A program made the translations under genes and the position numbers. The notes under the pieces were generated by a model. It worked only from the letters and a program-made list of their open reading frames with translations. It was not told the DNA's origin and did not search any database. From a virus: 64,000 nucleotides of DNA. Numbering within the stretch: the stretch's first letter is position 1; each line of letters begins with the position of its first letter. Below are positions 7,376 to 38,858 of the stretch, piece by piece. The stretch lies in IMG/VR virus record IMGVR_UViG_3300044966_000489. One strand, given 5' to 3'.

Positions 7376-7376
7376 A

Positions 7377-9260: not shown

Positions 9261-9269
9261 CCTTTTGCC

Positions 9270-10700: not shown

Positions 10701-10704
10701 TCCT

Positions 10705-14042: not shown

Positions 14043-14043
14043 A

Positions 14044-20000: not shown

Positions 20001-21414
20001 AAGCGATGACAACGGTAAGGGATTTGATTCTACTCAATATAATGCTTATTTGATAGCTGTAGATTCATTCATGTTCGCTTGGCAGTTTAACTCAAATGCA
20101 GCAACAGCAAGAAATATCTTAGACTATTATTCTTCTTTCATTGATAAAGATAATAACATAGGTAAAATTTACCCTCAAATTAGTGACCCAATTGTTATAA
20201 AACAAGAATCATCTACTCCATTATCTTTCTCTCTAGAGTCTGTATTAAAAGATGCTGATACTAGATATCTCCATTTTACAATTAATAAAACTGTACTAAC
20301 TGAAAATATATTTGATACTAGCGTAAATACGCTCCCTTCACCAGCTTATGCAATTTCTAGAAAGAGCGTAATTTATAAGCCTACTACAAACGCAAACCTA
20401 GCAGCAGGAGCTAAAGATGATAGAGTATTATCTTCAGATCCAGACGGCACTATGGCTTATTACAAACTCTCTTTACAAAATAGAGATAATATACCAAATG
20501 CATCATTATCACCGAAAATACCCACTGGCAAGAGAGCTTATGTTTTAAATGGCAATAAAATTTTTACAAGAGCTTTAGTTCCTGACGCAAATACTGTTTC
20601 TTTAAGAGCAGTAGAATCAGAAACAGCTAATGCTTTTAAGTCTAAAGCTAAAATAACAAATAGCTCTTTTGGCGAAGGAAACGAAGAGTTTTTCGACATC
20701 TCTATAACAAGATTAACTAATAGCACGTTTACTGGAAATATAAAGAGTTTAATTCCTGATTATACAAATACTTATTTAATTCCTATAAACGCCTCAAATT
20801 CAAACACTGAAGAAAATGCAAAAAGCAATTTTAATAGTTTATTAAATGATGGATTGCTCAATTCATCTTTCAATGCTATAAACGTTACTCCTGAAAACAA
20901 CTTTTCTGAACTTGGAGTCAATACTAAAAATGTTCAAATGTTGATAAATGCAGAACCAAACAATTTCACTGTTTATACTATAAATCAGCAAACAGCTAAT
21001 TCGTTTAATTTTGGTATAGCAAATTCTTCTTTCTATGCTGGAGTTCCAGTATTAGAAAATGAATCTTTGTCTATTTTCTTTACAATTGGAAGCGTCAACA
21101 AAACAAAAGCTATAAAGGTATATTGCTTTATTGGAGAAGATTTTGTAGCTAGTGAAGTAGATAAAACCCAAATAATACCGGGAGACGATAACATAATTAA
21201 GGTTACATTAAAAAATGTTCCTTATGCAAATTATTACGCCAACGCTTCTTCTTATTCTGCTGATGCATCAATAACTAATCCAACTTTCTGGAAATTCAAG
21301 AGTGCTAAAAACTTAGCTTTTGCACATTTGTCCGCAAGATCTAACAATAGATCATTTCCATTATATAATTTCCATATCCAAGCACTAGAACTATCAGTAG
21401 TAATAACTTACTAA
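14044..21414 (+). CDS. Tail tip/host-specificity protein gpJ-like (central fibre/hub) with a large internal insertion
   Basis: 2456 aa. Motifs DLLSEGPIEGL, KVKVPANYDP, WDGEFK...WTDNPAWCFYDLL, YCDELV.DG.GG.EPRFTCN, AFGCTSRGQAQRLGRW, LKPGDVI. Confidence 0.85.
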   Translation: MNNLEDFKYIKGFGGGGGGASAAPTPTAAYEDAEGFVYDGLTYNVYQFAKVKDLLSEGPIEGLLEGQYSFSGQVGDLGFKKVTYNEYPSVVGSDGESKYLRSVQWNQTPLLDSQDKYNFQQINIQATNGTPEGTSSGGEFDNVSYIRSIGERLRGPNLLASTEDETLDYQRTYRILNRECKKISLNFRISSLYVSLKYQDLKPISEGTLKIEGVTSANQSSSTFTLDPASRDVELTNGQTLDAGVGSVIRHNFKIRIRISPIYKEGYNSNSAVLDLISDKAKVIDDSKDLAVTVDTFPQIFELESKGKITQGYSKQIIFDTSSKFLSLNENENWLGWDISVLKITPEDTYSSRASFINLESITEIYSSSFRYTNSAIVTSKFNAAYFSKIPERSYDVKLLKVKVPANYDPITKTYGNTTPLSITATNSFAKTDKVITTDFFVGENNVYTNSDNVNPPITDGLIAQFDASNASLTTSTGSVTNWPNTVAGSTIKCVLGNGTYASPNGSANKPTYGSTYSEQSPNGTYGVSFTTTQKARFVYQTETSPLADASNNYTVFAVCKWHDSATNTERNRIISSYSLENTFVLGFDGKFNNAFTVGSQIYGVMPVNFYQFNRSNYWNDANDTNTYIVGTSVSNLKDVNIFWQNTNYFVRPINAVAAPKGLAINSSASTSRCTVFEILVYNKALSKSDGIKIRNWLNKKWNLISSNLSYSTSVAGSYNTNVLNVASNTYLKMPLKTLCANGQRTKAYSYAGGSLATSDYYEFDLIPQRYWKNWKTPQNFSLKDQGFCSFYCDFFIKLGSIGDGNYTLIHRSNQFNLSMTISGENVSLILTVISPNESKNYTITKALDPAKYSTTKLKENFTRISFYILPKVVKPSISYTTNASKVNNINISDRTWTNDYITVRRATADGNERALAQELKDFYLVKAVSFKEDTSYSSNINNLPETCYKYIYCNFNAASQQTGGRSSTFVPVIERRLTKEYFPDILNAEIDVLVNLEKQIQCNINISNYAAYQTLCVGALYRPATDPVWQNEINQRAQIAPLAQEALNTYNKQEYHKTFDGSSTSVSLSSSQSEIKVLIPLAAGQIYDAVNTKTGPFIPSYFITNNNQIEIFTSPAGFGGKIEGYADSIRVNQIDFDRLSLSKAFARNLFSEGLSRKTTVYDAAGVLPYSTSNDYWDGEFKTEKEWTDNPAWCFYDLLTNKRYGVGNYVTENDVDKWSLYQIAKYCDELVSDGFGGVEPRFTCNVYLQTQDDALKVLSDMASVFRGMFYYSNGFIYAINDMPEDTPIYSFTNSNVSDGNFTYESTSLKDRNSVVYIRYIDKNNFYKPAVEYVENIEAVRKFGFKETELTAFGCTSRGQAQRLGRWLLASEYNETETVSFEAGPECVYLKPGDVIKVYDYNRKYKTVGGRLNNINISGDTNVTTGILTLDRKLDFNFSGNQNYKLTILSPKYNLDPSFKDAAGDSIVTSNLDYNDYRKPLTNSFIVGSGNLITGQYYDSIRITGLAPVMASGLNVTGLSYFTGASGMSPKSITWALENSGNLNGSTDSDYDFYRVFRIQESTEGSNYTVIGSQMYHLKYAQIESGLNITPAKPPAPEASAPSRALFTLGVAEANGVIDQSKVLIEIFYDSSIKDTTIGFKIFNKAFYGSDFNPNSSSDFKFVPIDIYESYVNTVLDKSNIKGSIRIYGANINNSSPLTYVEASNSQNSNELFVSPVVAITYDDVNTSSSITLNNKVYAFTSPIDLTKAQYFQSTAPSQIQSVKPPESLSFNIPLQFIKNPNKFNNLDYPYRIAIIPEKVDTKDAFGTVYNKYLNVSNWEDYLTFDEDQTSDNIYNYKTSNVFAKYRNFSLAIDKMTFTDVGMKSTSNDFKNVDGFLLVTYDNQDADLKKSLNAILKDTRATYSIVTSQGSNRLKFTIQQDTASSFINAFYLLLMPSENIFEFGKNSINHNPDGSPLSVNDNTGKEIIDSHFITISNNQSIFNFNDLSDDNGKGFDSTQYNAYLIAVDSFMFAWQFNSNAATARNILDYYSSFIDKDNNIGKIYPQISDPIVIKQESSTPLSFSLESVLKDADTRYLHFTINKTVLTENIFDTSVNTLPSPAYAISRKSVIYKPTTNANLAAGAKDDRVLSSDPDGTMAYYKLSLQNRDNIPNASLSPKIPTGKRAYVLNGNKIFTRALVPDANTVSLRAVESETANAFKSKAKITNSSFGEGNEEFFDISITRLTNSTFTGNIKSLIPDYTNTYLIPINASNSNTEENAKSNFNSLLNDGLLNSSFNAINVTPENNFSELGVNTKNVQMLINAEPNNFTVYTINQQTANSFNFGIANSSFYAGVPVLENESLSIFFTIGSVNKTKAIKVYCFIGEDFVASEVDKTQIIPGDDNIIKVTLKNVPYANYYANASSYSADASITNPTFWKFKSAKNLAFAHLSARSNNRSFPLYNFHIQALELSVVITY

Positions 21415-21415
21415 A

Positions 21416-22114
21416 ATGAAACACTACATCGTATATTTTATAAATGGCAGTCACAAATACCTCCAATCTTCTCTCGACTTGATGGAAAATTTAGATCGCC
21501 TAAAGCTTGTAGGAATAGAGTATGAAGTTGTAGACTACATTGTACCTTTAGAAAAACACATTGACCAAAGCATATTAGAACATAGAAAATTTCTTCCTGA
21601 TGGAAACTCTATATGGAAAAAAGAAAATCTCATTGATAAAAAAGTTAAAGAAATGACTGCAAAAAGAAACACTTTATTGCAGAAGCTTGATATTGACTTC
21701 ATTATCTCTCTAGAGACTCCCAACAATAAACAAACAGAAGTCATTAAAAATAACAAAAAGTTTCTAAGAGAACTCTCTTGTAGAACTGAAATGCAACACA
21801 TTCATGATTGCGAAAAGATAAACAAGTTTAACGCCTTTCATAATATTGTTGATATACAAATTATTGACCCCGGATATGGATGCTCAGAACCTGTTCCTTG
21901 CGTCACCATCTCTCCTCCTGAAGAAACCGAATACAACTACGGCTTAACCGCTTCTGCTCATGCTGTTAGAGGCTCAAAAGGAGAGCTACTTTCTTTAACA
22001 ATGGAGAAATTAGGTTGTGGTTATATTTCAGATCCAGAGATTAAAATAAGTGGATATGAATCAGAAAGCGCAAAACATCCTATTGTAAAAGCAGTGATTG
22101 GCAATATAATGTAA
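21416..22114 (+). CDS. Hypothetical protein: tail-fibre-assembly-like helical domain plus a GxGY beta domain
   Basis: KRNTLLQKLDIDFIISLE...KKFLREL resembles phage fibre-assembly chaperones. C-terminal IIDPGYG...P.VTISPP...LGCGYISDPEIKI repeat. Confidence 0.4.
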   Translation: MKHYIVYFINGSHKYLQSSLDLMENLDRLKLVGIEYEVVDYIVPLEKHIDQSILEHRKFLPDGNSIWKKENLIDKKVKEMTAKRNTLLQKLDIDFIISLETPNNKQTEVIKNNKKFLRELSCRTEMQHIHDCEKINKFNAFHNIVDIQIIDPGYGCSEPVPCVTISPPEETEYNYGLTASAHAVRGSKGELLSLTMEKLGCGYISDPEIKISGYESESAKHPIVKAVIGNIM

Positions 22115-22117
22115 CAT

Positions 22118-22945
22118 ATGACGGATGTATTATTTTCTTTTGGCGACGAATACATATATTCTAACAACCTAGCAAACTGGTCTACAATAGAACCCAGTAA
22201 AGAAATAGAAATTATTGGCAACCCAGAGAAGTTCTCTGTTGTGCGAACTGCCGTCATTAACTACAGCAAGCCTTTTACTGTAGAATCAAGTTTATTAATT
22301 AAATTTAGCGGCACAATTAAAGATTTAATCTTAGATGGAGACACTATTGATTGCTATTTTGCTCTTTACTATGCTGCATTAATTAATGACATTACTGAAT
22401 CTGGATCTGGATACAAAGTAAATGAATATGTAACTATTGGTAAAAATTCTTACTTTGAATCGTCCATAGATAAAAACCAAAAAGCTGTCCTTCAAATTAA
22501 AGCTGTCAATAGTGATGGCGGTATTACTGAACTCCATTTAATTAACAATGGAAAATTTACTCAAAATTTTACTGAAGCAGAATTAGAAGGCGGATCTGGT
22601 AAAGGCGCAAAAGTAAGCTTGATTTTGGGTAAAGACAACAAGAAGGCTCTTAAGTTTTTTTCTGTATTGGACGTAAAGCGAGAAAACGCTTCTACTCTTG
22701 TAATGTTAAATGAAAAGATTAAAGACGACTTCCTTACAGGAGAAGTCTATATAAAACGATACCGCATTACATTAAATAAGGCTACGGGCAAGGAATACCT
22801 GAATCAAGCCTTCATTGTAAAGGTAGACAAGACTCCTTTTCTTAATCTACCATTAGCCAAAGACAACAATATAGAGCAAATCTATAATCAGGCTATACTA
22901 ACTATAGATTCTAAGATTAAAGAATTATCTGCTGGCGTAAAGTAA
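22118..22945 (+). CDS. Hypothetical virion-associated protein with a GxGY beta domain
   Basis: 275 aa. ITESGSGYKVNE...GGITELHLINNG...GGSGKGA. Its 3' end overlaps the convergent TMP 3' end by 21 nt. Confidence 0.4.
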   Translation: MTDVLFSFGDEYIYSNNLANWSTIEPSKEIEIIGNPEKFSVVRTAVINYSKPFTVESSLLIKFSGTIKDLILDGDTIDCYFALYYAALINDITESGSGYKVNEYVTIGKNSYFESSIDKNQKAVLQIKAVNSDGGITELHLINNGKFTQNFTEAELEGGSGKGAKVSLILGKDNKKALKFFSVLDVKRENASTLVMLNEKIKDDFLTGEVYIKRYRITLNKATGKEYLNQAFIVKVDKTPFLNLPLAKDNNIEQIYNQAILTIDSKIKELSAGVK

Positions 22946-25900
22946 TCCTCCGGGTCTCTTCTGCTCGACCAATACTTCAACGACTTTGCTTCTGAGTAGT
23001 TCAGCGAGTTTAGCATTGTTTTGAATATTGTTCTGATCTTTATTAGTATTGGAGCCACCATTTTGAGTGGTAGCATTAGCTTCAGAAGTGACTTCGCCGC
23101 TTTGAGCAACATTAATTGAAATGTTATTAACTACAGACATTCCAGATTCTTGATTTGCTCCAGCAGCAGAAATTTTACCTGACTCAGCTTGGGTGATGTC
23201 ATTGCCCTTGGAAAGGTTTTCATTCAATGTATTAAGAGCAGCGACTAGTTCGGTCACGCTAGATTCAGGAGTATTTTGACCTGCTGTATAACTTGTACCA
23301 ACCATTCCTCCGCTGGCATACTTAGGCAATGTACCAGTATTCAATTGATTCATGAAGTCTCTGCCGTACATATCTACAGCTTTCTTGTTCATGACATATT
23401 CGCCGCCCATTAACAAGGCAGGAATATTATCTTTACCTGTTGATCCACCGCCAGCAAATCTAGCTATATAGCCGCCATTTGACCTAAGATTTCTTGCATA
23501 TTGAGCGTTTAATTGAGCTTGAGTTAAGTTGCCTCCGGGTTCTAGACCTCTTGCAGCAGATGTTGCTGCATTAGTTCTCATATTAGCTGCTCCAACCGTA
23601 AGACCAGCAGCACCTAATTGAACAGCAGCAGCAGTTAAACCTGAATAGAAAGTGCTATTTACTTGATTTTTGTAATTTTTAATAGCTTGCTGTTTGTCTT
23701 TCTCATACTGCGATCTGTCTTGCAAGTATTGATCAAGTTTTTCATAGCGATCTTGTCTTAATCTATTTTGAGGATTATTCTCGTCAGTTAAAGCTGCGGC
23801 TGATAGTCTAGAATCAACAGCAAACTCCCCAGAAGTTGGACGATCAGGATTATCATATAAGAACTCATTTTGTAATGGACCCATTGAGAACCCACCTACT
23901 GCATATTTGGGAACAAGTCCGCCATTCAAGGCTCTTAAATAATCAGAACCGTATTTTTTAACAGAAGACTTCTTGATAACGTATTCGCCGCCACTCATCA
24001 TAGCGGGTACATCATCTTTCATTCCAGAGCCACCAACAACCATACCTCCAGAATTATAACCTCTGATTAATCCACCATCTTTTCTGCCAGTTGCAGCTTT
24101 ACCAAAAGCAAATAAAGCATCAACTCCCATCTCTAAAGACTTATCAAGCATTCTATTTAAGATGCCTTGGAACATATCTCTAAATGCATCCTTAAGAGTT
24201 TTAGTTCCTTTGATAGCTTCACCAAATGCACTAGCAATACCTGATTTGAAATCAGTTTGGAAAGTGTCGATCAATTGACCAGTATCTCTAGCAAAATCGG
24301 CTCTATTGTAAGTAGTATTTTTTTCTGTTATAGCTCCAATAGCTACTCTTCCTTGACGAGCTTCATTTTCAATTCTAGCATTAGCAAAAGCCGCTCTTTC
24401 ATCCTTAAAGAAAGTTTCTCCAAACGAACCTTTGTAATATAAATTATACAACTCTTCTGCGACCTTACCTTCTTGCTCTAAAGTTTTCTTTCTTAGCTCA
24501 GTCTGAAGTTTAATTAGGTCTTCTCTTTTCTTTGTATCATTTAGGTCTTCTTTTAAAAGGTTATTTACTTTTTCGTTAAGATCGACAAGCTGTTTATCAT
24601 TTTCTAATCTAGCCAAAAGCAAATTATTGATACTATCTAGATTTGCTCTTCCTTGAGCTAATTGAGTTGGTAAATTTCTTTTAGCACCGCCTTGATCTGC
24701 TAAACCATATTTATCAATGATATCTTGTAAAGAAGGCGCAGTTGATTTATTGCCTACTGACATTAAAGGAGAAGCCGAGTCTAATCTTCTTAACTCTTCT
24801 TGTGCAGATTTAATAGACTTTACAGTCTCCTCTGCCATAGAGACTTTAAAATCTCTATTTATATCTTGAGTTAATCCTTTATAGGTTCCTGAGAGGTTAA
24901 TCTCTGGACGACCAATTGATTTTTCGCGTGAAGCGATTAATTGCTCTAATCTTTTTTGATTTCTTAATTGATCTTCATAGGAAGAGCCTAGATCTTCCTG
25001 CAACACAACTGCATTATTTATAGTTTCTCTAGAAGTACCAGTCCCGTAATAGCCTTTTCCATAGCTAACACCTCCAGTAATATTCCCATAATCATCTCTT
25101 GAAACTTTAGATGGATCTCCAATTAAATTTTTATAAGCTTCTGTAAAAGCTCCTTCTGCTCCGGTTACTGTTACTAAATCAAAACTCTTAAAATAATCTT
25201 GTAATTTTTTAATCTCTTTTTCTCTTGCTAGTCTTATTCCTGCTTCGGCGTTGTTAGTCTGCATAGATATGGACCCTTCTGTATCTCTTAAATTTTGTGA
25301 CGCAGCTATTCTATTCAATATTGCTTGTCTATCTGCTGGAGATACGTCAGCAGGAAGCTTATTAAACATTTCGGATTCAAGAGCGTTTCTTTTTGTAGCA
25401 ACTCCTAATTTGTTAATAACTCCCTGTAATGAAGTAGTTAAGCTATCTAATTTGCTGCCTACTTGTTCTGTTATAACTCTATTAAAGTTCTCATTTATAG
25501 TAGTTGGCAATGTTTTTTCTAAAATAGAATTTTGATCTTGTGTTAGGTCATTTAAGAATCTAGCTTCTTGTTGTAATACGTCAAGATAGTTCCCCATATT
25601 CTCTAACTTAAACTGAGAAGTAATTTGATCTAAAGCAGTTTTAACTGCGCCTTCTTTTGCTTGGTCAAAAGCCGTTCCTAAAGCAGTACCGGCTGTTGGT
25701 TTACCCATTTGAATTTCAGTAACTCTGCGAGCTAAATCTACGCTTTCTCTTATTTGCTGCACTCTGCCAGCAATAGCTGTTCCTACCAAAGGATTTAAAT
25801 CAGAAGACACTTGATTATTAAAAGCACTTCCACTGGCACTGGGTCCAATGAATCCGCTTGGTTGACCAATGCTTCTATTTAATTGTAATTGATTAGTTAA

Positions 25901-28900
25901 TACATCAAGCAATTTAAAAGCACTAGATCCCCTTTGAGCAGCATTTCCAGCAACGTTAGTTTGTCTAAATTCTGAAACTAATTCAGAAATATTATCAAAA
26001 AGTTCAGAAACCCCCGCTTTACCAGTGGAACTCAAAGCTTGTGCGCCACCAGCAAAAGAAAGTCTTTGATTTAGCTCCAAAGACTGTTTTTGATATTCTC
26101 TTTGGGCTTCTTGAATTTGAATATCTATATCGCCTTGAGCTTTTATTTCGGCGAGAGTATTTTGAAACTCTCCAAAAGATACTTCAAGAGTTTGCACAAG
26201 AACATCTCTTTCTTCTGGCTTGAATTGAGAAAATCCTCTTATGTTATTTATTAAATTTGTTTGTATATCTCCTATATTACCACCAGAATTTATTTGTTTT
26301 AATGATTCAGCAATTAAAGGAGTTAATTTCTGAATTTGATTTTGGAAGACGGCTCTTTCTTGTTGAATAGCATTTTCAGACTTGGCACCCTCAATAGCAG
26401 GAATAACTTTTGATCTAGCTTCTTCTGATTTTTTAATTATCGTATTTGAGAAAGAATCTAAAAGTTTATTAGAAGCCTCTTGAATTTTAGAATTTTGTCT
26501 AGAAGTTATCTCATTTAGATCTAATTGATTTTGGATGTCCGATTTTGAAGACTCGCTAATAAATGGAGTAGCTGATTCTAAAAGACCTTTAACTCTAGCT
26601 CTTTGGATTGAAACCGCGCCTTCTGCTTGAATTTTATTTATCTCTCTAATAGTTTGAGCGCGATTTTTTTCTATATCAATTTGATTAGAGATTTGAAGAT
26701 TGATGCTATTGTATTGAGAATTTAAAGATTTAAGAACTTCTTCATTTTCTTTAAGTCTCTTAGTGTTTTCTGCTAAAATTTCTCCAAGGTTTTTCGATCT
26801 TTTGGCGAAATCAAAAACGTCTATTCCTGCTTTTTTGAGCGAGTCGAATAAAGAACTTAATGCTACAGTATCAAATTCAGCAAAAGCTTTGTCAAGCTGA
26901 TCAATTATTTCTTCAGGAATAACTGTATTCTGTTTTAACTGAGCTTTTATATTTTCTACGCTCTCTTTATTAACCATTGGTTGTGCGCCTATGCGGGAAC
27001 CATAAGGCCCAATAGTCTCTTGACTATAAATAATTGCTTGAGATTTTAAAGAATCAATAAATTTAGAAAAGTCTGCTGCGGCATTTTCTCCAGTAAATTT
27101 TTTAGTTATATCTTCTGATCTAATAGAAGAGGTGAATAATCTATTAAACACTTCTTGATCTTTTGGCTTTAAACTACTTCTACCCAAAAAAGAAGATTGC
27201 TTTTCAATAAATTGCGTGATAGCTAATTGTCGCTCTAAATTCTTTTGCGTATTGGCCATTTCTTTATTTACTTCACCAATAGCTTCAGTAACCTTACTTA
27301 TCTCCGTCCCTGCGGCTAACACTTTACTTCTGAACTGTTCAGGAATACTATTTAAAGCTTCTGTTAAATTATTTTGAAACTTTAATAGTGCTTCAGGCTT
27401 TGTCTTAGGATCATTTAAAGCGTTTTGTAAACCTTCTAAAGAAGTAGAGTAATTTTGAGCGGCACCAGAAAACTCAGCAGATCTTTCTTTTGTCTCTCCC
27501 AAAGATTTATTAATTTTATCAATAGCCTCTTCAGCTTTGGCATCTTTTAATTTAATAAGAGCAGATCCAGCTCCTAAAATTACTCCTGCTATTGCTCCGT
27601 AAGGGCCAAACTGTGCCCCTAAGCCAGCAAAAGAAGCTATGTCTCCTAAGCCAGAAGCTGCGGCTCTTCCTGTTTTATTTTCTGGAGATATGAATTGTCC
27701 ACCAATATTTGAAGCTACACTACCAATTAAACCAATTTGAGTGCCAAGCCCTCTAACGTATCTATCTGCTTGCCCTCCAGACGCAAAACTTGCTCTTGAA
27801 AATACAGGAGCTTGAGCCTGTCTTATATTTTCTTGCGCTTGTCTTCGTCCTTCTCTAGCAGCAGATAATTCTTCTCTTGCTTTTTTTCTTAGTTCAGATT
27901 GTTGTTTTCTTAACTCTTCTAATCTAGCTACTTGTTCTGGAGACGCAGCAACAGGAGAGCTTGTAACAATACCAAATTGATCTCTAGTTGTTTTCCCTAC
28001 TAAAGGACCAGTAGCAGTGCCTTGAAGCTTTAAAGTCGTTTTATTTACATTTGTAAATGTTCTTTCAATCTCATCGGATATTGCTTTTTGACTCTTTTTG
28101 AAGTCTTTTGGTATTTGTCCTATCTGTTGAGAATAAGAAGCGGCAGCAGAAGCATTTGATTTAATTAAAGTATCAGAACTACCTTTTAAAGTTCTAAGGC
28201 TTCCTGCAACTTCTTTTAAAGCAGTACTAAGAGTTCCAAAAGCAGCAATTAATATAAAAGCATCTGCGCCCCCAAACTCAGCAAAATTAGGAATATGTCC
28301 TCTTGCAGACATTCCTTTTGTCTTAGGGTCTATTCCAGCTTTCTCTGCCAAGCCAATTCCATTATTAAGAGATCCTTCTGTAGAATTATAAACACCCAAT
28401 CCCATTGGATTGAAGCTAGTCTTTAATTTATCGCTTCTACCTAATCTAACCTGAGAAGCAGAATATCCAGCAGACATCTCTCTATTCATTGCCTCCATAA
28501 CTGGATTAAAATTAGGAATATAACCTGAAGCAAATCTAAAATCATCTTCGTATCCGAGACTACCTAAAGAAGATTTTCTCTTAGAAGCTAGGCCGCTTCC
28601 TAGATTAAACATTCCTGTATCAACTATACTAACTTTACCACCTTTAGTAAAAATAGAGCTTAAAATTCTGTCAATTTGAGCTTCTGCATCTTTGTTGTCT
28701 TTTGATTCAATAGACTTTAGTAATTTCTCATAATTTCTTCTAGAAATCTTCGACAAGATACCTTCAGCTACTTGATTATACATCATATTGCCAAGGTTTT
28801 GAGTTAAATCAACTGCCTCCATTCTACCTCCTGCATTAATTTGAGAAGTAGCTCTGTCGGCTATGATTTCTGCGAGTTGGACAAATCCTCTTCTTTCTCC

Positions 28901-31900
28901 AGTATATTCGTCTAAATTTTCAGAAATTTCTTGTGCTGTTTTTCCAGAAAAAATCTCTTTATAAATAGCACTCTTTTGTATAGCTTTTGACAATGCTCCG
29001 TAAATCTTAGGAGTTTCAAAAATTGGGTTTAATTGTTCTGCATCAATCATCTGGCCAAGTTCTTGTGAAGCTAAGTATTCATTTGCTACATTAGATTTTG
29101 TAGATGATTCGTTATCTGGGAATTGTTTTACTCCTAGATTTCCTCTTAATGCAGAAAATGTTCCAAAAAATCCGGGTTTTCCTAATTGCATTCTAGCAAA
29201 GTTAGGAATATGACCCGATGAATAATTAGATACGAAATCTCTAAACTTTGAAGCTTTGCCCTCATCAATAATAGATTTGTTTTGCTTATAAGTAGAAATG
29301 ATGAAGTTCATCAACTCGGGAGTCAGAGAACCTTGAATTTCTTTTAAATAAGAACCCACTTGCTCTGCGTTAGCTGCCCAAACGCTTGCCATTGATTTAG
29401 CATGAGCTTCTCCTTCTGTTCTATTAACTTGGTGAGCGGCTTCATGAAAAACAGTATCTAATATTTCTCTAGAATAGATGTCTCTAAATTTACCAACTGA
29501 TTTTATTTTCTTTCCTTGTTTAGCTTTTTCTTGAGAAATCTTTCTAATTCTATCTATAACTGTCTCTACATGAGCAAATGGTTCAACTATAGATTTCGTA
29601 CCTACTTCTTTTGATGAAGCAGTATTTAAACCCATCCAATTAGCTCCAACAGCTAAACCTCTAAATGAAGCATTAGCCATTCTTGGATCAAAAATCTCAG
29701 AAGCCTGTCCAATTGTTTGTTCAAAAACGCTTTTTAAAGCAGCACCAAAATTTTGGAATTTAGGATTTCCAGCAATACTCTCCATTGTTCCTTTAGGCAA
29801 AGAAGAAGAAACATCAAGAAGCTCAAGATCAGAACCCATTTGATAAGAAGGGACATTCCTAACGCTATCTTCTTGAGCGCGTTTTAATTGTGCAGCTAAA
29901 TCCTGTACGGCAGATTTTGCCATTTTGCCTAATGGCCCTCTTAACTCAGTTCTGTCAGTATTCCAAGGATAATTTGGATCACCTGCACCAACATTACTCC
30001 TAACATTAAACATTAAACTTTTAGGAATATAGTCTACTCCTTCTACTTTATAGTTAGCATACTTCATTCCCTCTGACAGCATGGGAATCTGAGCGTATCC
30101 ATAAGTTTTTTGAGGATCTCCTTGAGGATCAAACAATATATCTACTTCTCCACCTTCTGCCGTTAAAGTTCTTTGTACTGAAGATTTACTAGGATCAAAT
30201 TTAGAAAAATAATATTTTCTATAGCTAGGATCTTCATTTCTAGTATTAATTGTTTGCCTCAATAAACCAGAAGAAGCAGTAGTAAATTTAAATGGAAGTT
30301 CTGCTACTTTTCCTGCTCTATTCTCTAAATAACTTCCATAAGATATATAACCCTCTTTAGAAGGAGAAGCAGCGAAAGTGGTTCCCATTATTGGAGTATT
30401 CTTTTTTTCTGGATTGACTTCTCTCCAAAACATTTTTAACCCATCAAAATTTAAATCACCTCTTGGTTGATTAAAAAGAGTTTCATCTAAACTTATTTTG
30501 CCCTTTTGTATGAAATTATTCCATCCTTCTGGGGTTCCAGAAACAATTGTTCTTATCTTTCTACCATTTATTTCTTTTATAGTATCAAGAAGGAACTTCT
30601 TGGAACCCATGAAAATAGAAGCTTTTCCCATTCCAAATCCAGATAATCCTTTATTACCTCCTTCATTTCCTGTTTGAGCATATGGTAAAAATTTAGTGAA
30701 TACATCTTCTGGAGACATTCCAGTGCCAACATCACTAATTGCAAACTCATTTGGCTTTCCATATCCGCTTACTCCAATGAAAACTCCCTTTTCTTGTCCT
30801 GATTGACCGTGAGCGACAGCGTTTTGCAAAGACTCTCTAAATACTGTTTCGGGATTAATATCCATTTGTGCTAAATTAATTCCCATTAATCTAGCAGTAT
30901 TTACTGTTTGAAAGTCTTTTTGAGCAAAATTTGGTATAAAACCTTTTGAAAATCCAGTACTAAGTTGACTTACCTTTTTTTCTTGAGCCTTAAAATGCTC
31001 TGCCATTTGTAGGCCGAATTTCTTCTTAACTTTACCAATAAACGATCTTACAGCATCATCATTATTTCTTAATTTATAATCTCCATATTGATCTCCAAAT
31101 CCGGGGAAAAACTGTCTTACATTTCCAATATTTCCCCCAATTACGTCAAAATCTCCAACACCACCACCAGATTGATCTCTTGTGTAATTAGCGGCTAAAT
31201 TAGTAGAAGCTTCAAAAATAGTACCAGCAAGAACAGAATAATTTTTACCTGCCTTATTAAAAAATTCATCAACAGAAGCATCCGAATATTCTCCGGGTCT
31301 AATATAATTAGCAATTTGTTTTGTTGTTCTGCGAGAGAAATCTGCTGTTTGTGTAATTAGATTAGTTTTTTCTTCGTTTTGAGAAGACGAATTTAAAGCA
31401 TAAGATTTAATCTTAAAAGCTCTTCCGTCTTCTTTTCTCTTAGTTAATATTTCTTCGGTCTTTTCATCTGCAAATAGTTCCTTATTTTTTGCATCTAAAT
31501 CAAATACAAGCATTGAAGCAGGAGGAACATAAGGATCATAAACTTGCTTAATTCCTTCTTTGATATTTTCTTGACCTGCTATTTTCTTTCCGGGTGCAAA
31601 GTCGCGTCTAATAGCGTTTAAATCTGATATAGCTCCAGATTTCCATCTTGGATCATCTTTTAAAAGACTATCTGGAACATACTTTCTAATGTCTCCATAA
31701 GTAGCCCCTCTTCTCACAAATGTATTTAAATCATTTGCAGTAAAAGCAGAACCATCAGTTTTATAAAAACCTTTATCTTGACTCCAAGCTGCCGATGTTC
31801 CAGTTGTAATTTGAGAAAGAGAAACGGGAGCAGATAGACCAGACCCAAGCCACCAATCATTATCTCCATAAGAAGGATTGGTTAAAGGTTTTGGAGCAAA

Positions 31901-33796
31901 ATTAGGAATGAATCCTTTAGCCATGTAAGGATTAATTCCATTTTTAGCCATGGATTTTGAAGCTAATTGAGTTGCTGCGCGAGATCCTTGAGGAGGAAGA
32001 ATATAAGGTTGAGCGAAACCGGGAATATATTTAACTGTTTCGGCAGTATTCATTATTCCGCCAATTGACTTTGGAGCAGCAACTACTCTACCGGGAGTAT
32101 AACCACCTTGCATAGCTCCAACCATCTCTGCGGCTTGCTGTTTAGCTGGAATATACCCTTCTGCGCTTCTTCTTCCAACAATAGTATTCTTTTCAGAAAC
32201 TCTTAAGCCTGAAGCTAAAAATCTACCGCCTATATCAATAGAAGAATTTTTAATCTGTTCTGCTAAAGCAGCTTGTTCTATAAGAGTTTGTTTTATTTGC
32301 TGCTCTACTTGCAAGCGAGTTCTAGATCCAGAAATAATGTCTTTAATTAGATCGGGATTATCAGAAAGAATTTTACCAATTTCTGATTGTAAAACAGCTT
32401 GTTGTCTTCCAAGAGTATTAAGTCCCAAAAGATTTTTAGTTGCATCTCCAGCGAATTTAGTAAAGTTAGCTAATAGTTTTCCAATTGCAAACGCTCCAAT
32501 ACCTAAACCGGGACCAGTTATAAAATTAGTAACACCACTTAATACACCAGTCGCAATTTTTTCGCCAACTCCCTCTGCGTCTTTTTCATTGTAAGACTCT
32601 AAGCTTGAATTAATATAGCCCAAAACTTTTCTAATTCCGGGTCCAACGCTTGCTTCTCCAATTGAGGTAGCAAATTTTGTAAAATTAATAGTTGTTTCAT
32701 TAAGCAAAGCAGAAAGACTTTCGTTTAATGCTTTATTCTTTAAGATAGCTTCGTCTGCTGCCTTAGAGGAAGTTCTTGTAGCTTCTGCGAATGCAGAATT
32801 TTGTTTTGATACGTCTGCTAATGCCGCTTTTAAAATGTTAATTTGATAAACACCACCAACAAGTTCAGCAACTTGAGATTTAATAACAGGATTTAAATTT
32901 TGAAATGACTGAGCCAAGTTTTCAATAACTTTAATCGTTGGCAAAGCATTTCCTGAAATATCAGTAACAGCAATACCAAAGTCTTTCAAATCACTGATAA
33001 CTTGAGGTCTTTCTATTCTTGTAAAAATAGTCTTTAAAGCGTTACCGATTACAGCACCACCACGGGCAGTTGTTTGCTGAACAGAAGTAACAATACCTAA
33101 CAATTCATCAAAACTAACTCCAGCTTCGCTGGCTGAAGAACCTACACGCTGAATAGCTTCGGACAAGTCTCTAGAACTAACTGCGAATTTAGCGTCAACG
33201 GCGGCTAACTTATTTACTACATCAGTTGTAGTGAGAGCTTCTTTTGTAAATGAGTTTACAGCAGCAGTAAGAGCCTCAGTACTAGAAACGACATCAAGAC
33301 CAGAAAGACGAGTTAAGATAAGAGCATCTCTTGTTCTCTTTAATGTCTCTTCTAATCCCAAACCTTGTCTTGAAAATTCTGTTGCAGCACTGGCTACATC
33401 TTTAAAAGCCGATCCAGTATTTTTTGCTACACTAAATAACTGATCTCCAAATTGCTTGATACCCTTAGAAGATGTATTTAATACTACATTGATATCAGTA
33501 AGAGACTTTTCTACTTCGATAGTAGTATTTACTAAAGAGGAAAATGACTTTTGAACTGCAAAAATAAGACCAGCAGAAGCTCCGAATGCGACTACACGGG
33601 CATTTGAAGCTTCCAAAGACTTTTGGAATTCATTAGCTAAACCAGTAATTTTACCCAGTGGTTGAGAAAAATTTCTTGTATTTAGAGAAAGATTACTCTT
33701 GCTCTGGATACGGTTCAACGCCGACAACACATCTTTTTCAAGTTGCGCGGCAGCAAATGTCGCTGAAATGGGAATATTTCCTGCTGATGTAGCCAT
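22925..33796 (-). CDS. Tail tape measure protein (TP901-type N-terminal domain) carrying internal enzyme-like cargo domains
   Basis: 3623 aa. N-terminal TMP domain (ATEFSRQG...VDAKFAVSSRDL...TARGGAVIGNALKTIF), long helical regions and hydrophobic segments. Two C-terminal D[DN][VI]PA[ML][ML]xGGEYV repeats typical of TMPs. Lies downstream of tube and chaperone genes. Confidence 0.9.
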   Translation of the reverse strand: MATSAGNIPISATFAAAQLEKDVLSALNRIQSKSNLSLNTRNFSQPLGKITGLANEFQKSLEASNARVVAFGASAGLIFAVQKSFSSLVNTTIEVEKSLTDINVVLNTSSKGIKQFGDQLFSVAKNTGSAFKDVASAATEFSRQGLGLEETLKRTRDALILTRLSGLDVVSSTEALTAAVNSFTKEALTTTDVVNKLAAVDAKFAVSSRDLSEAIQRVGSSASEAGVSFDELLGIVTSVQQTTARGGAVIGNALKTIFTRIERPQVISDLKDFGIAVTDISGNALPTIKVIENLAQSFQNLNPVIKSQVAELVGGVYQINILKAALADVSKQNSAFAEATRTSSKAADEAILKNKALNESLSALLNETTINFTKFATSIGEASVGPGIRKVLGYINSSLESYNEKDAEGVGEKIATGVLSGVTNFITGPGLGIGAFAIGKLLANFTKFAGDATKNLLGLNTLGRQQAVLQSEIGKILSDNPDLIKDIISGSRTRLQVEQQIKQTLIEQAALAEQIKNSSIDIGGRFLASGLRVSEKNTIVGRRSAEGYIPAKQQAAEMVGAMQGGYTPGRVVAAPKSIGGIMNTAETVKYIPGFAQPYILPPQGSRAATQLASKSMAKNGINPYMAKGFIPNFAPKPLTNPSYGDNDWWLGSGLSAPVSLSQITTGTSAAWSQDKGFYKTDGSAFTANDLNTFVRRGATYGDIRKYVPDSLLKDDPRWKSGAISDLNAIRRDFAPGKKIAGQENIKEGIKQVYDPYVPPASMLVFDLDAKNKELFADEKTEEILTKRKEDGRAFKIKSYALNSSSQNEEKTNLITQTADFSRRTTKQIANYIRPGEYSDASVDEFFNKAGKNYSVLAGTIFEASTNLAANYTRDQSGGGVGDFDVIGGNIGNVRQFFPGFGDQYGDYKLRNNDDAVRSFIGKVKKKFGLQMAEHFKAQEKKVSQLSTGFSKGFIPNFAQKDFQTVNTARLMGINLAQMDINPETVFRESLQNAVAHGQSGQEKGVFIGVSGYGKPNEFAISDVGTGMSPEDVFTKFLPYAQTGNEGGNKGLSGFGMGKASIFMGSKKFLLDTIKEINGRKIRTIVSGTPEGWNNFIQKGKISLDETLFNQPRGDLNFDGLKMFWREVNPEKKNTPIMGTTFAASPSKEGYISYGSYLENRAGKVAELPFKFTTASSGLLRQTINTRNEDPSYRKYYFSKFDPSKSSVQRTLTAEGGEVDILFDPQGDPQKTYGYAQIPMLSEGMKYANYKVEGVDYIPKSLMFNVRSNVGAGDPNYPWNTDRTELRGPLGKMAKSAVQDLAAQLKRAQEDSVRNVPSYQMGSDLELLDVSSSLPKGTMESIAGNPKFQNFGAALKSVFEQTIGQASEIFDPRMANASFRGLAVGANWMGLNTASSKEVGTKSIVEPFAHVETVIDRIRKISQEKAKQGKKIKSVGKFRDIYSREILDTVFHEAAHQVNRTEGEAHAKSMASVWAANAEQVGSYLKEIQGSLTPELMNFIISTYKQNKSIIDEGKASKFRDFVSNYSSGHIPNFARMQLGKPGFFGTFSALRGNLGVKQFPDNESSTKSNVANEYLASQELGQMIDAEQLNPIFETPKIYGALSKAIQKSAIYKEIFSGKTAQEISENLDEYTGERRGFVQLAEIIADRATSQINAGGRMEAVDLTQNLGNMMYNQVAEGILSKISRRNYEKLLKSIESKDNKDAEAQIDRILSSIFTKGGKVSIVDTGMFNLGSGLASKRKSSLGSLGYEDDFRFASGYIPNFNPVMEAMNREMSAGYSASQVRLGRSDKLKTSFNPMGLGVYNSTEGSLNNGIGLAEKAGIDPKTKGMSARGHIPNFAEFGGADAFILIAAFGTLSTALKEVAGSLRTLKGSSDTLIKSNASAAASYSQQIGQIPKDFKKSQKAISDEIERTFTNVNKTTLKLQGTATGPLVGKTTRDQFGIVTSSPVAASPEQVARLEELRKQQSELRKKAREELSAAREGRRQAQENIRQAQAPVFSRASFASGGQADRYVRGLGTQIGLIGSVASNIGGQFISPENKTGRAAASGLGDIASFAGLGAQFGPYGAIAGVILGAGSALIKLKDAKAEEAIDKINKSLGETKERSAEFSGAAQNYSTSLEGLQNALNDPKTKPEALLKFQNNLTEALNSIPEQFRSKVLAAGTEISKVTEAIGEVNKEMANTQKNLERQLAITQFIEKQSSFLGRSSLKPKDQEVFNRLFTSSIRSEDITKKFTGENAAADFSKFIDSLKSQAIIYSQETIGPYGSRIGAQPMVNKESVENIKAQLKQNTVIPEEIIDQLDKAFAEFDTVALSSLFDSLKKAGIDVFDFAKRSKNLGEILAENTKRLKENEEVLKSLNSQYNSINLQISNQIDIEKNRAQTIREINKIQAEGAVSIQRARVKGLLESATPFISESSKSDIQNQLDLNEITSRQNSKIQEASNKLLDSFSNTIIKKSEEARSKVIPAIEGAKSENAIQQERAVFQNQIQKLTPLIAESLKQINSGGNIGDIQTNLINNIRGFSQFKPEERDVLVQTLEVSFGEFQNTLAEIKAQGDIDIQIQEAQREYQKQSLELNQRLSFAGGAQALSSTGKAGVSELFDNISELVSEFRQTNVAGNAAQRGSSAFKLLDVLTNQLQLNRSIGQPSGFIGPSASGSAFNNQVSSDLNPLVGTAIAGRVQQIRESVDLARRVTEIQMGKPTAGTALGTAFDQAKEGAVKTALDQITSQFKLENMGNYLDVLQQEARFLNDLTQDQNSILEKTLPTTINENFNRVITEQVGSKLDSLTTSLQGVINKLGVATKRNALESEMFNKLPADVSPADRQAILNRIAASQNLRDTEGSISMQTNNAEAGIRLAREKEIKKLQDYFKSFDLVTVTGAEGAFTEAYKNLIGDPSKVSRDDYGNITGGVSYGKGYYGTGTSRETINNAVVLQEDLGSSYEDQLRNQKRLEQLIASREKSIGRPEINLSGTYKGLTQDINRDFKVSMAEETVKSIKSAQEELRRLDSASPLMSVGNKSTAPSLQDIIDKYGLADQGGAKRNLPTQLAQGRANLDSINNLLLARLENDKQLVDLNEKVNNLLKEDLNDTKKREDLIKLQTELRKKTLEQEGKVAEELYNLYYKGSFGETFFKDERAAFANARIENEARQGRVAIGAITEKNTTYNRADFARDTGQLIDTFQTDFKSGIASAFGEAIKGTKTLKDAFRDMFQGILNRMLDKSLEMGVDALFAFGKAATGRKDGGLIRGYNSGGMVVGGSGMKDDVPAMMSGGEYVIKKSSVKKYGSDYLRALNGGLVPKYAVGGFSMGPLQNEFLYDNPDRPTSGEFAVDSRLSAAALTDENNPQNRLRQDRYEKLDQYLQDRSQYEKDKQQAIKNYKNQVNSTFYSGLTAAAVQLGAAGLTVGAANMRTNAATSAARGLEPGGNLTQAQLNAQYARNLRSNGGYIARFAGGGSTGKDNIPALLMGGEYVMNKKAVDMYGRDFMNQLNTGTLPKYASGGMVGTSYTAGQNTPESSVTELVAALNTLNENLSKGNDITQAESGKISAAGANQESGMSVVNNISINVAQSGEVTSEANATTQNGGSNTNKDQNNIQNNAKLAELLRSKVVEVLVEQKRPGGLLYASR
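28283..31915 (-). repeat. Five copies of the G-[FYH]-I-P-N-F peptide linker inside the TMP
   Basis: GFIPNF 31898-31915 (aa 628), GFIPNF 30926-30943 (aa 952), GHIPNF 29198-29215 (aa 1528), GYIPNF 28508-28525 (aa 1758), GHIPNF 28283-28300 (aa 1833). Degenerate GYIPA near 32147-32158 (aa 547). Confidence 0.9.
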
Positions 33797-35948: not shown

Positions 35949-37136
35949 TTATGCGTCGAGAGGCAATGTCTCAAGCATGAACAATCCTCTGTCATTTTGT
36001 TGAGGAGAGCCAACTTGAGTAGAGAAGTTTAGCGTGACCTGTTTATTGGCTCCGATTGAAGAAGAGAAGTCTTGTGAATCCAAGTTAAGTCTCTTGAGTA
36101 CATATCCAACGCCTTCATCAGGATTCAAATCACTGTTAGCAACAGCAGGAGCAGCGAGTTTGATAACTGCGTCATAGAGACCATCTACATTTACTAGATC
36201 GACCAAGTTACCAGTAGTAAGATCTTGTACCAAAGCTGTAACAGAAAGAGTTACAGTAACTGGGAAATCAATTTCTCTTGAATAAGCATATCTGCTTCCG
36301 ATCTTTTGCAATGGAGTTCTATTTAGACCCATTGAGATTGAGAAGTTTTGAATAGCGGCAGAAGTAGTTAAATCAGTACCGCCATAAGATTGACCCTGAG
36401 TCTTTGATAAAGAGAATGATATATCTCCATGTCTAAGAGCAGAAATCTTTCCCAAAGCGTTTTCACCATTAGGATTGCCTGTAGCTTGAGGTAGAATAAA
36501 CGCACCTCCAGCAATAGCTCCAGCAGGAGTAACACCGGGAGCAGCACCTGAATTTCCATTGCTGAAATTCATGTTTAAGCACTCCAAGCTGACAGAAGTG
36601 GTTGGGAAGTCTCCTACAGCAGCGTTAATAGAGTAATTAGTTAAGAAACCGTTTCCTAATCCAATTGTGCTTCCTATTGTTTGGTTAGCAACAGTATCAT
36701 TAGCAAAAGAAGAAGCATCATTACCTTCAGAAACTGTTCTGATGAAATAATTTTTAGTATTAATGAATCCGCTGGTTAGAATTCCAGATAAGCAAGATTG
36801 AGTAGCATTTGCGCTAGTGATATCAGAAATAGTAGTAATTCCATTGCTAATTACTGAAAATCCAAGGTTCTTTTCGTTGCCCATGTCTGTTAGCAAATAA
36901 GTGAAATCAACTCCTACGGTGGGTTGCTCTAGAATAATACGATCAATAGCAGCTAGATCGCCGAATTGGTTAACGTCTCTTCTTGCAATATTGAAATTAT
37001 AATTACAAGATTGGACGCGAGAAAACTGGTTAATATATAAATTTCCAGTTTGTGGTGGTGCAGAAGCCGCTACGTCAACAATGTCTTTTGTGTTGAATAG
37101 TGCTTCTGATTGGTAAATTACACGATTTCTTGGCAT
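35949..37136 (-). CDS. Major tail tube protein (probable)
   Basis: 395 aa, beta-rich, with internal duplication. Lies between neck genes and chaperone/TMP genes, has an AAAGGA Shine-Dalgarno and its own terminator, and its codons are visibly richer in C-ending forms, consistent with high expression. Confidence 0.65.
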   Translation of the reverse strand: MPRNRVIYQSEALFNTKDIVDVAASAPPQTGNLYINQFSRVQSCNYNFNIARRDVNQFGDLAAIDRIILEQPTVGVDFTYLLTDMGNEKNLGFSVISNGITTISDITSANATQSCLSGILTSGFINTKNYFIRTVSEGNDASSFANDTVANQTIGSTIGLGNGFLTNYSINAAVGDFPTTSVSLECLNMNFSNGNSGAAPGVTPAGAIAGGAFILPQATGNPNGENALGKISALRHGDISFSLSKTQGQSYGGTDLTTSAAIQNFSISMGLNRTPLQKIGSRYAYSREIDFPVTVTLSVTALVQDLTTGNLVDLVNVDGLYDAVIKLAAPAVANSDLNPDEGVGYVLKRLNLDSQDFSSSIGANKQVTLNFSTQVGSPQQNDRGLFMLETLPLDA

Positions 37137-37196
37137 ATTTTTAATCCTTTAAATTTCTTTTTATTATTACATTTTTTATTCTGTTTTGAGAAATTA

Positions 37197-38858
37197 TTAT
37201 ATGATTTCTTGTCTTTGCATCCAATAATCTCCCTGCATAAATACACCTTTAGTGGAATCTTGAGGAGAACTCATTTGACCTCCAAAGGTTAAAGTAGCTG
37301 TTTTGTTAGCTCCAATTGAGGAACTAAAGTCTAAAGATTCTAACTGCGCTGATTTAATTAAATATCTTACACCAGTTATCTTACCATAACTTGAAACTTC
37401 AGTTCCGGGTTTAATAAAAGAGACTGAAGTATTGAATTTAATATCTTTACTAGAAACTACATCAACTAAATTACCAGTTGCTAGTTCTGATACCAAAACA
37501 TTGACAGAGAAAGAGTAGCTAACTGGAAAAGTAATTTCTTTTGCGAAATTAAAAGTATTTCCAAGTTTACTTAAAGATTCTCTAGATAAAGCCATTGATA
37601 AACTGAAACTTTGAGCGTTTAAAGAAGAAGACCTTGTATCAATTCCTAATCCTCCAGAAGCATAAAATGGAGTTAAATCAAGGATGATGCCTCCGGGTCT
37701 AAATGCAGATATATTTTGTGATAGGTCTGATCTGCTGTTAAAATCTGGAAGAGAATATGTCCCATTTACTCTTGTTCCTTCTTCGTCTATTGAAGGCAAT
37801 GGATAACGTCTACCAGCAGAACTAGATTTAAAATCGTTGTCTCCAGTAACTATAGAAAAATTTCTAGCTTCATTACTAATTGCCACATTTGGGATGTCTC
37901 CTACTGCTGCATTAATAGCGTAATTTGTAATAACAGTATTTCCAAAAGCGATAATGGCTTGATCCAGTGTGCCGGTTGTCGCAACACTTACGTCATTTCC
38001 TTGAGGCACAGTTCTTACAAACAAATTTTTTTCGTCACTTGCTTTTGTAAGTATTCCGCTTAAACAGGTTATATCTACAATACTAGAAGTACCTTCTGGA
38101 TAGTTATTTGCTAAAGTTGGAGAAAAAGTTGATTGATTGCTCGTACCGCCAATCCCGACATTAACTGGAATATTAACAATAGAAACTGTGGTTGCGATTT
38201 GAGAATTATTTATATAAATAACTCCTGATCCTTTATCAGTTATTGAGACTCCTGTTGCTTGACCCGCATATAATCCTCCAGTAGCCACGCCAAAAGAAAG
38301 TACAGGAGGCATATTTCCACCGGCTTGTGGCAATGTTAAAGTAAATGAATTTAAATAACCTTGACCGCCATCAGCAATAGAAGCCGCAGTAATTCCAAAT
38401 TCAGATTGCCCAGAAGCAGTAATTGTTAAATTTACAGCAGCACTTCTCTTCAAAGAAGTCGTAGTGAAACCTAATTCTTCTTCATTCTTAAGACCGTTTT
38501 GATAGTAATTAAAATCAATATTTATTACTGGTTGCTCTATAATGATTTTGTCTATTGCGGCTAAATTTCCAAATTGATTTACATCTCTTCTCGTAATATT
38601 AAAGTTGTAATTAATACTTTGTATACGATCTAAATTAGCTAAATTTGGAAGCAAACCTGCTTGCATAGTAGCAAGACTAGCCGTGGTGGTTCCTGCTCCA
38701 GAGGCTAAAGTTCTTGTAGCAAGAGGATCTAATTGATTTAATTTTTGAGTAGGAACATTTACATTGCTTCCTGTAACAAACTTATAGTGACCAGATATGG
38801 CTGGCGAAGGGCCAACGTATAATGCTTCATTTTGGTAAATTACTCTATTTCTTGGCAT
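37197..38858 (-). CDS. Second tail tube paralog with an inserted GxGY beta domain
   Basis: 553 aa. Same N-terminus MPRNRVIYQ, and shares YNFNIxRRDVNQFGxLAAID, CLSGILT, TNYxINAAVGDxP and DFSSSIGANK with the 395-aa protein. Confidence 0.65.
   Translation of the reverse strand: MPRNRVIYQNEALYVGPSPAISGHYKFVTGSNVNVPTQKLNQLDPLATRTLASGAGTTTASLATMQAGLLPNLANLDRIQSINYNFNITRRDVNQFGNLAAIDKIIIEQPVINIDFNYYQNGLKNEEELGFTTTSLKRSAAVNLTITASGQSEFGITAASIADGGQGYLNSFTLTLPQAGGNMPPVLSFGVATGGLYAGQATGVSITDKGSGVIYINNSQIATTVSIVNIPVNVGIGGTSNQSTFSPTLANNYPEGTSSIVDITCLSGILTKASDEKNLFVRTVPQGNDVSVATTGTLDQAIIAFGNTVITNYAINAAVGDIPNVAISNEARNFSIVTGDNDFKSSSAGRRYPLPSIDEEGTRVNGTYSLPDFNSRSDLSQNISAFRPGGIILDLTPFYASGGLGIDTRSSSLNAQSFSLSMALSRESLSKLGNTFNFAKEITFPVSYSFSVNVLVSELATGNLVDVVSSKDIKFNTSVSFIKPGTEVSSYGKITGVRYLIKSAQLESLDFSSSIGANKTATLTFGGQMSSPQDSTKGVFMQGDYWMQRQEII

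Follow-up and report, generated by a model that had tools for sequence, protein, structure and literature searches.

In polyvalent proteins, many enzyme domains, among them zincin peptidases, kinases and GNATs, are carried by one virion-delivered polypeptide (Iyer et al., 2017; PMC5512222); the main text of that paper makes no mention of GHKL, HSP90 or tape measure. Enzymes are also known in tape measure proteins (TMPs). The 5002-aa TMP of Thermus phage P23-45, gp96, includes an enzyme that is folded and active in the cytoplasm, and also a metallopeptidase domain (PMC10770324), and a metallopeptidase motif lies inside pb2, the TMP of siphovirus T5 (bioRxiv 10.1101/2022.09.20.507954). Finally, a GHL ATPase and a Wss1-like fold are present in one chain in Tiamat, NO VEIN and sacsin, in a setting of phage-host conflict (bioRxiv 10.64898/2026.09.30.754977).

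The locus described here lies in the window, by which we mean the whole 64,000-nucleotide stretch of viral DNA that was analysed (IMG/VR record IMGVR_UViG_3300044966_000489). One block of its TMP joins a GHL ATPase, a transducer domain and a zincin. The P23-45 RNA polymerase and the T5 pb2 peptidase motif are already described in TMPs; our literature search, with subscription papers outside its coverage, found no description of a GHL ATPase-zincin fusion. The module is real, conserved and mobile, and it works like the cargo of polyvalent proteins. As in these proteins, several unrelated conflict enzymes are carried by one polypeptide and vary among relatives, with delivery suggested by their location, and LPD38 or LPD39 is present in some module carriers. 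The module differs in that the peptidase is the obligate partner of a GHL ATPase and in that the carrier is a TMP with peptide linkers.

The other systems differ more. The RNA polymerase of gp96 is N-terminal and conserved in related phages, whereas the module is an optional, swappable mid-protein cassette. The T5 peptidase is C-terminal, muralytic, cut off during assembly and devoid of an ATPase, whereas the module is located mid-TMP and has one. Tiamat is the nearest architecture; however, it is a host defence protein with a Wss1-like fold that lacks HExxH, TPR-like folds in place of S5 and a terminal nuclease, whereas the module is phage-borne, has kept the S5 fold and an intact HExxH, and has no nuclease. 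The TPR-like middle and the C-terminal PD-(D/E)xK nuclease of Tiamat are absent from our model, and PADLOC gave no match for this copy and matched only the ATPase stretch of one family member, to TmtA. T4 rIIA-like phage GHKL proteins also combine a GHL ATPase with a transducer, are linked to counter-defence and are the top named viral fold matches, but they are stand-alone proteins (about 700 aa) whose C-terminus is different and variable, and the matches cover only about 370 columns. No rIIA PHROG matched this copy, and in two members only an N-terminal stretch was matched; moreover, the module is embedded in a TMP. The Wss1/SPRTN DNA-protein crosslink proteases (WLM, SprT) give the best match to the C-domain, by fold and by sequence, and share with it HExxH and a third ligand six residues further on; in this copy of the module the ligand is Glu, and Wss1 has no fused GHL ATPase.

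The tape measure gene and its cassette array

The block lies in one stop-free frame (29216–30925, minus strand) within an ORF of 3623 aa. This ORF scored 98.9 bits with PF10145 (cut-off 33.2) and 111.4 bits with TIGR01760 (cut-off 28.8), and it is preceded by two tail-tube-like and two chaperone-like genes, assigned by position and sequence; a core domain above the curated cut-off and a place behind tail-tube and chaperone genes identify it as a TMP. A lambda-like tip module, including a Phage-tail_3 protein, is encoded on the strand opposite to the TMP. The TMP, the gene order and this tip module indicate a siphovirus-like phage, the DNA of which is found in lake-water metagenomes. The cassette array lies between two weak hydrophobic segments (aa 425–443 and aa 1846–1864, mean hydropathy 1.4–1.5) and is organized as follows.

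22925–33796, minus strand: TMP gene carrying the cassette array (PF10145, TIGR01760 and gene order; position and sequence)
32867–33427, minus strand: PhageMin_Tail (PF10145) TMP core, aa 124–310 (E 4.6e-28)
31895–31915, minus strand: first array linker (motif, array comparison)
30944–31894, minus strand: upstream cassette, which the nearest relatives have in a divergent form
30923–30943, minus strand: GxIPNF linker before the cassette, exchange boundary (motif, identity steps)
29216–30922, minus strand: cassette of GHL ATPase, transducer and zincin, TMP aa 959–1527 (array comparison, model, fold matches, identity steps of relatives)
29195–29215, minus strand: GxIPNF linker behind the cassette, exchange boundary (motif, identity steps)
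28526–29194, minus strand: neighbouring cassette, the sequence of which shows kinase-like motifs; homologues in L004 and P0004, no Pfam match
28505–28525, minus strand: linker at which the variable array ends and identity with relatives sets in again
28280–28300, minus strand: last linker, followed by the hydrophobic segment aa 1846–1864 (motif, hydropathy)

An assembly artefact was considered and rejected: the cassette is 98–100% identical in three IMG/VR contigs, and most of it is covered without differences by X13, a run that carries no flag as a source. No joints across the cassette were seen in four runs. Among RNA runs, of each of which small shares were covered, X17 contains a 199-base piece of the cassette, which is not proof of transcription.

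Three other features of the region were observed. The tail-tube-like genes form a paralogous pair of 395 and 553 aa with the same N-terminus (window 35949–38858). The tail-tip gene block (10146–22945) is on the plus strand, inverted with respect to the flanking structural genes (1865–10088 and 22925–63854). At the C-terminus of the TMP (window 22925–24100), a GG-rich, linker-like motif is present twice, which suggests that the linker derives from a general TMP repeat.

A GHL ATPase followed by a transducer domain

The initial annotation had placed the four ATPase boxes and the HExxH motif inside the TMP; all of them are there, between the linkers at aa 952 and 1528. An AlphaFold model of the whole block (570 residues in three parts) had a pLDDT of 88 and a pTM of 0.84. 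Of 20,000 shuffled sequences, none contained the motifs in this order and 36 contained HExxH alone; this check is only rough, as the pattern was written after the sequence had been seen. The parts of the module are listed below; those that go beyond the initial annotation are the transducer with its invariant R325, between ATPase and zincin, and the likely third zinc ligand E504.

30266–30925, minus strand: GHL (Bergerat-fold) ATP-binding domain, module aa 1 to about 220 (profile and fold matches; boundary approximate)
30821–30835, minus strand: N-box ExxQN with catalytic E31 and Mg-binding N35 (invariant in 139 of 139 members, which were chosen on the N-box)
30719–30733, minus strand: G1 box DxGxG (D65, G67, G69; 99–100% conserved)
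30623–30649, minus strand: G2 box or ATP lid, including G98 and K101 (motif position, family alignment)
30380–30385, minus strand: G3 box GT (G181, T182; 98% and 86% conserved)
29855–30193, minus strand: S5-2-like transducer (middle) domain, module aa about 245–357 (GHL fold matches; boundary approximate)
29951–29953, minus strand: R325, predicted equivalent of the Hsp90 catalytic-loop arginine (100% of 139 members; equivalence from motif and fold)
29216–29854, minus strand: Wss1/WLM-like zincin domain and closing helices, module aa 358–570 (model, fold and sequence matches)
29432–29446, minus strand: HExxH zinc-binding motif (H494, E495, H498; motif, invariant in the family)
29414–29416, minus strand: E504, likely third zinc ligand (predicted; aligns with the third His of Wss1)

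The N-box E and N, DxGxG, a Gly-rich lid and the GT box follow each other in the order expected of a GHL ATPase, with the D of NAxDA replaced by Ala in this copy, and after the Bergerat fold comes an S5-2-like transducer in which a basic residue, R325, is conserved. This residue is most likely the Hsp90-type catalytic-loop arginine, judging from motif and fold. Model residues ~10–357 matched GRP94 (Z 16.1, rmsd 4.7, 276 aligned), topoisomerase II (Z 15.7, rmsd 4.4, 261 aligned), SMCHD1 (Z 14.4, rmsd 5.1, 289 aligned) and MORC3 (Z 13.6, rmsd 4.7, 277 aligned), GHL proteins as a whole (GRP94, type II topoisomerases, SMCHD1, MORC, MutL) scoring between Z 12 and 16. As these matches span residues ~10–357, this part of the block comprises an ATP-binding domain and an S5-like transducer.

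By sequence, Pfam HATPase_c remained below its cut-off on this copy alone (E 2e-4), and the module family profile matched HtpG with E 4e-16, over the N-domain only. The module is thus not a full-length Hsp90/HtpG; NCBIfam Hsp90 gave no match for this copy (the best member tested scored 41 bits, against 455), and no C-terminal dimerisation domain is evident in the module. MORC proteins were absent from the 60 best sequence matches of the family profile, and the MORC fold match was lower than those of Hsp90 and topoisomerase II. In the description as an "Hsp90/MORC-type" ATPase, the MORC part is probably too specific; Hsp90/HtpG is the closest by sequence, and the fold is that of a generic GHL protein. 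A phmmer search of the PDB with a single module gave no matches, and an Atlas structure search returned generic HATPase clusters only (TM ~0.5). Several viral clusters of 495–631 aa in the ESM Atlas score 0.97–0.98 for HATPase_c_3 by features and may be stand-alone relatives.

A homodimer model of residues 1–358 with ATP and Mg scored 0.79, with 0.00 for the best control, and had an N-terminal strap interface; a resemblance to the solved GHL dimers may account for this score, which does not imply binding. Among solved pairs 20 of 30 attained the score mark, and among single chains 1 of 23; the runs agreed in at least 98% of contacts, with a pLDDT of at least 83. The TMP clade of the window departs from near-invariant ATPase residues at five positions (Y19A, D38A, K87N, G95S and Q289Y), so that the ATPase of this copy may be altered.

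The zincin domain

Folded alone, the C-domain gave a pLDDT of 94. In this model H494 and H498 lie on a helix under a small beta sheet, with E504 as the likely third ligand, which is the arrangement of a zincin. The best fold match was Wss1, with a moderate score (Z 7.7, rmsd 3.0, 111 aligned); members of the YbeY ribonuclease family tie with it (Z 7.2 and 6.1), most of the top matches being zincins. Foldseek on the zincin domain gave no match at E ≤0.001. By sequence, the profile matched Wss1 with E 0.0035, and the C-domain matched WLM, YgjP and SprT peptidases, not YbeY. WLM was the commonest Pfam match in the family (24 of 109 members at E ≤0.05, best 2.9e-6, none for this copy), and no MPTase-type Pfam match was obtained among family members. 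A strict WLM/Wss1 definition asks for His six residues past HExxH, and this copy has Glu; a nearby His is present in 73 of 139 members and a Glu in 45, including this copy, and E504 is invariant within its subfamily. The zincin assignment thus combines a moderate fold match of the model with sequence matches in agreement.

In conclusion, the GHKL ATPase and the HExxH zincin read from the letters by the initial annotation were both matched as folds, and their catalytic residues are invariant in 139 homologous modules. The annotation would have been abandoned for want of a HATPase_c or zincin structural match or of residue conservation; all of these were found.

Exchange of the module at the linkers

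Searching with the TMP N-terminus yielded 57 loci, with TMPs of ~1800 to more than 3700 aa that differ mostly in linker-bounded blocks. The first 399 aa of the TMPs of L008 and L009 are identical to those of the window, yet the blocks are others and L008 has no module; DNA identity with the window ends at aa 963 and restarts at aa 1754, both at linkers. Conversely, L011 has a backbone 60–89% identical to that of the window and a cassette that is 92–100% identical, with the steps at linkers. The module is therefore an accessory cassette, gained, lost or swapped as a unit exactly at GxIPNF linkers.

Three distant TMPs (P0002, L038 and P0004) have it as well, again flanked by linkers. In trees P0004 stands apart from the clade of the window, P0002 and L038, and an AU test did not reject a single origin (p 0.09). 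Other blocks of the arrays have kinase-like motifs or weak GNAT and PcfJ matches. Homologues of the kinase-like cassette adjoin the module in P0004, where they follow it, and in L004, where they precede it, and are absent beside the module in L010 and L011: the pairing is frequent, not obligatory.

Further cassettes were noted in these arrays. L008 (13274–15109, TMP aa 1092–1703), L012 and L014 have three tandem paralogous blocks of ~200 aa, related to the block after the module in L010 and L011; they are GNAT-like by eye and have no Pfam match. A 638-aa cassette in L022 and L023 (TMP aa 1499–2136) has a PcfJ-like match (E 1e-6), with a kinase-like block at aa 1165–1367 of the same array. L004, which represents the TMP array of P0002, has a DUF7178 cassette at TMP aa 664–868 (E 2e-19), and in L038 (TMP aa 1748–2670) an insertion of ~300 aa lies inside the ATPase domain of the module, with the motifs retained.

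The module family and its carriers

A homologue search in 1.84 billion representatives gave 199 matches, and 151 proteins were examined. N-box and HExxH are 380–560 residues apart in 139 of them; since both motifs are kept at similar spacing, the ATPase-zincin fusion is a stable family. The alignment of the 139 members is invariant at E31, Q34, N35, D65, G69, G98, Y319, R325, H494, E495 and H498; N-box and HExxH were the criteria by which members were selected, and D65, G69, G98, Y319 and R325 were not selected on. Compared with L010 and L011, the pN/pS of the cassette is ~0.1, which shows that it is under purifying selection.

All but three of the 139 carriers (136) are not TMPs and have neither TMP core nor linker; a length of 1000 aa or more was found for 129 of the 139. 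In the 12 carrier loci that were read, the module gene closes a structural block of podovirus-like type, a position that is the ejection-protein slot of T7/P22-like genomes; two or three smaller genes, and sometimes a GNAT-like gene, precede it, and it often faces a DNA polymerase A gene. The module is optional in this slot: L080 and L082 have the C-terminal anchor of P0064 without the module, which is nearly the sole insert of P0064 (1356 aa) relative to L080 (768 aa). Three further carriers are on short contigs. The short carriers L064:950-3112 and L069:2494-4680 (720–728 aa) may be stand-alone genes that lie outside a virion block. The module is thus found almost only in large proteins, of the TMP type or, where checked, in the ejection slot. 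The initial annotation had called such a module highly unusual in a ruler protein; this is right within TMPs, where it was seen in four lineages. Among the giant proteins of podovirus-like ejection slots, however, the module is common, and TMP-borne enzymes have precedents in P23-45 gp96 and T5 pb2.

No full module was found in cultured phages, the sole match being an ATPase stretch in gp154 of Arthrobacter phage Atuin. Two word-index homologue searches, at near and at longer lengths, gave none; they are weak evidence, the 3623-aa class lying outside the lengths searched. Broad alignments were too diverse for locus scans. Two podovirus-like module contigs of another subfamily, L071 and L072, are in Nitrosotalea and Nitrososphaerales MAGs; these short, phage-like contigs from one genome scan are either viruses of ammonia-oxidising archaea or misbinned.

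Discussion

We propose that the block is accessory virion-delivered cargo, a zinc endopeptidase gated by a GHL clamp ATPase that would act on a host protein, and we hold this reading with a little better than even confidence. The TMP, its cassette in an unfolded or partly folded state, would be packaged and then expelled at infection. A folded 570-aa module should exceed the lumen of the tail, so that refolding must be assumed. The array, which lies between the two hydrophobic segments, would come to face the cytoplasm; the cassette would refold there, and neighbouring TMP copies would supply the dimer partner. ATP binding would then close the N-terminal gate round a client gripped by the transducer domains, and the zincin would cut it. 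As its client we envisage a protein of the host that is encountered in the first minutes and is probably bound to DNA or part of a defence. A need for cytoplasmic ATP, as put forward in the initial annotation, is in line with these results, and the host-directed effector that it suggested, still putative, gains support from conservation, swapping and the kinases carried as co-cargo. In a more specific version the module would be a phage-injected prokaryotic counterpart of Wss1/SPRTN with its own motor, its GHL clamp closing on DNA or a DNA-bound protein and proteolytically clearing the incoming genome of defence or nucleoid proteins of the host, in podovirus ejection proteins and siphovirus tape measures alike; this is speculative, and we give it a fairly low probability.

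It had also been suggested that the zincin processes the TMP itself at the GxIPNF linkers. Among 38 TMP loci with at least two linkers (near-duplicates included), the module is missing from 32, of which 31 lack any HExxH, and the linker was found in 0 of the 136 carriers that are not TMPs. The independence of linkers and module is clear in both directions and leaves linker cutting unsupported. The linker peptide is strongly conserved (129 distinct copies), and some recognition role would fit; however, DNA identity switches exactly at linkers, and recombination explains this. We regard cleavage at the linkers by the zincin as highly improbable. As far as sequence comparison can tell, the linkers behave as recombination joints, not as substrate of the protease. 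A cis-acting chaperone-protease could instead, after ejection, refold the remaining domains of the polyprotein to which it belongs and release them, cutting elsewhere than at GxIPNF. Autoproteolytic release by the metallopeptidases of polyvalent proteins is proposed by Iyer et al. (2017; PMC5512222), the closeness of the ATPase to Hsp90/HtpG would suit such a role, and the module is nearly always inside a giant protein. We nevertheless judge it unlikely, because close relatives have equally long arrays without the module, mostly without any HExxH, because the module swaps like other cargo, and because P0064 has little else to release.

The module might also act late in the producing cell, for example against superinfection or lysis-time defences, being cut off or undelivered, with the TMP as its expression site only. 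This would remove the problem of tail-lumen size, TMPs are cleaved during assembly in T5 and lambda, a few short carriers exist and the rIIA proteins, which are related in structure, are to our knowledge not carried in virions. Such a role is nonetheless quite unlikely, given the strong association with two unrelated kinds of ejected protein and the fact that excision of a mid-TMP block would split the ruler. That the C-domain is a metal-dependent hydrolase of RNA or DNA (YbeY-like) or of peptidoglycan (T5 pb2-like), rather than of a cytoplasmic protein, would agree with the tie between YbeY-family folds and Wss1, with the nucleases driven by many GHL ATPases and with the muralytic metallopeptidase of the T5 TMP. 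We consider it very unlikely: HExxH with its general-base Glu is invariant, the sequence matches are to WLM, YgjP and SprT peptidases, and the obligate ATPase fusion speaks against a periplasmic role. Finally, the substitutions at several near-invariant ATPase positions might mark this copy as a decaying or catalytically dead passenger, but most of them are common to P0002, at 48% identity, and all core residues are retained. Departure at the same positions in P0002 and the low pN/pS make decay unlikely and, with the recent spread of the module between backbones, leave this reading scarcely probable.

Under the host-directed reading that we prefer, the near-exclusive presence of the module in probably injected proteins points to a counter-defence or takeover activity that precedes transcription. 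We know of no ATP-dependent protease with a motor other than AAA+, and a GHL clamp coupled directly to an intact zincin would be a different design. As the module is compact, well modelled and naturally bounded by linkers, its direct expression and assay are feasible. Natural phage pairs with and without the cassette, of the window and L008 types, make it possible to ask whether TMPs carry folded cytoplasmic enzymes through the tail and whether tail length counts cassettes. If the Wss1/SPRTN-like version were true, such a stripping machine would be widespread and undescribed.
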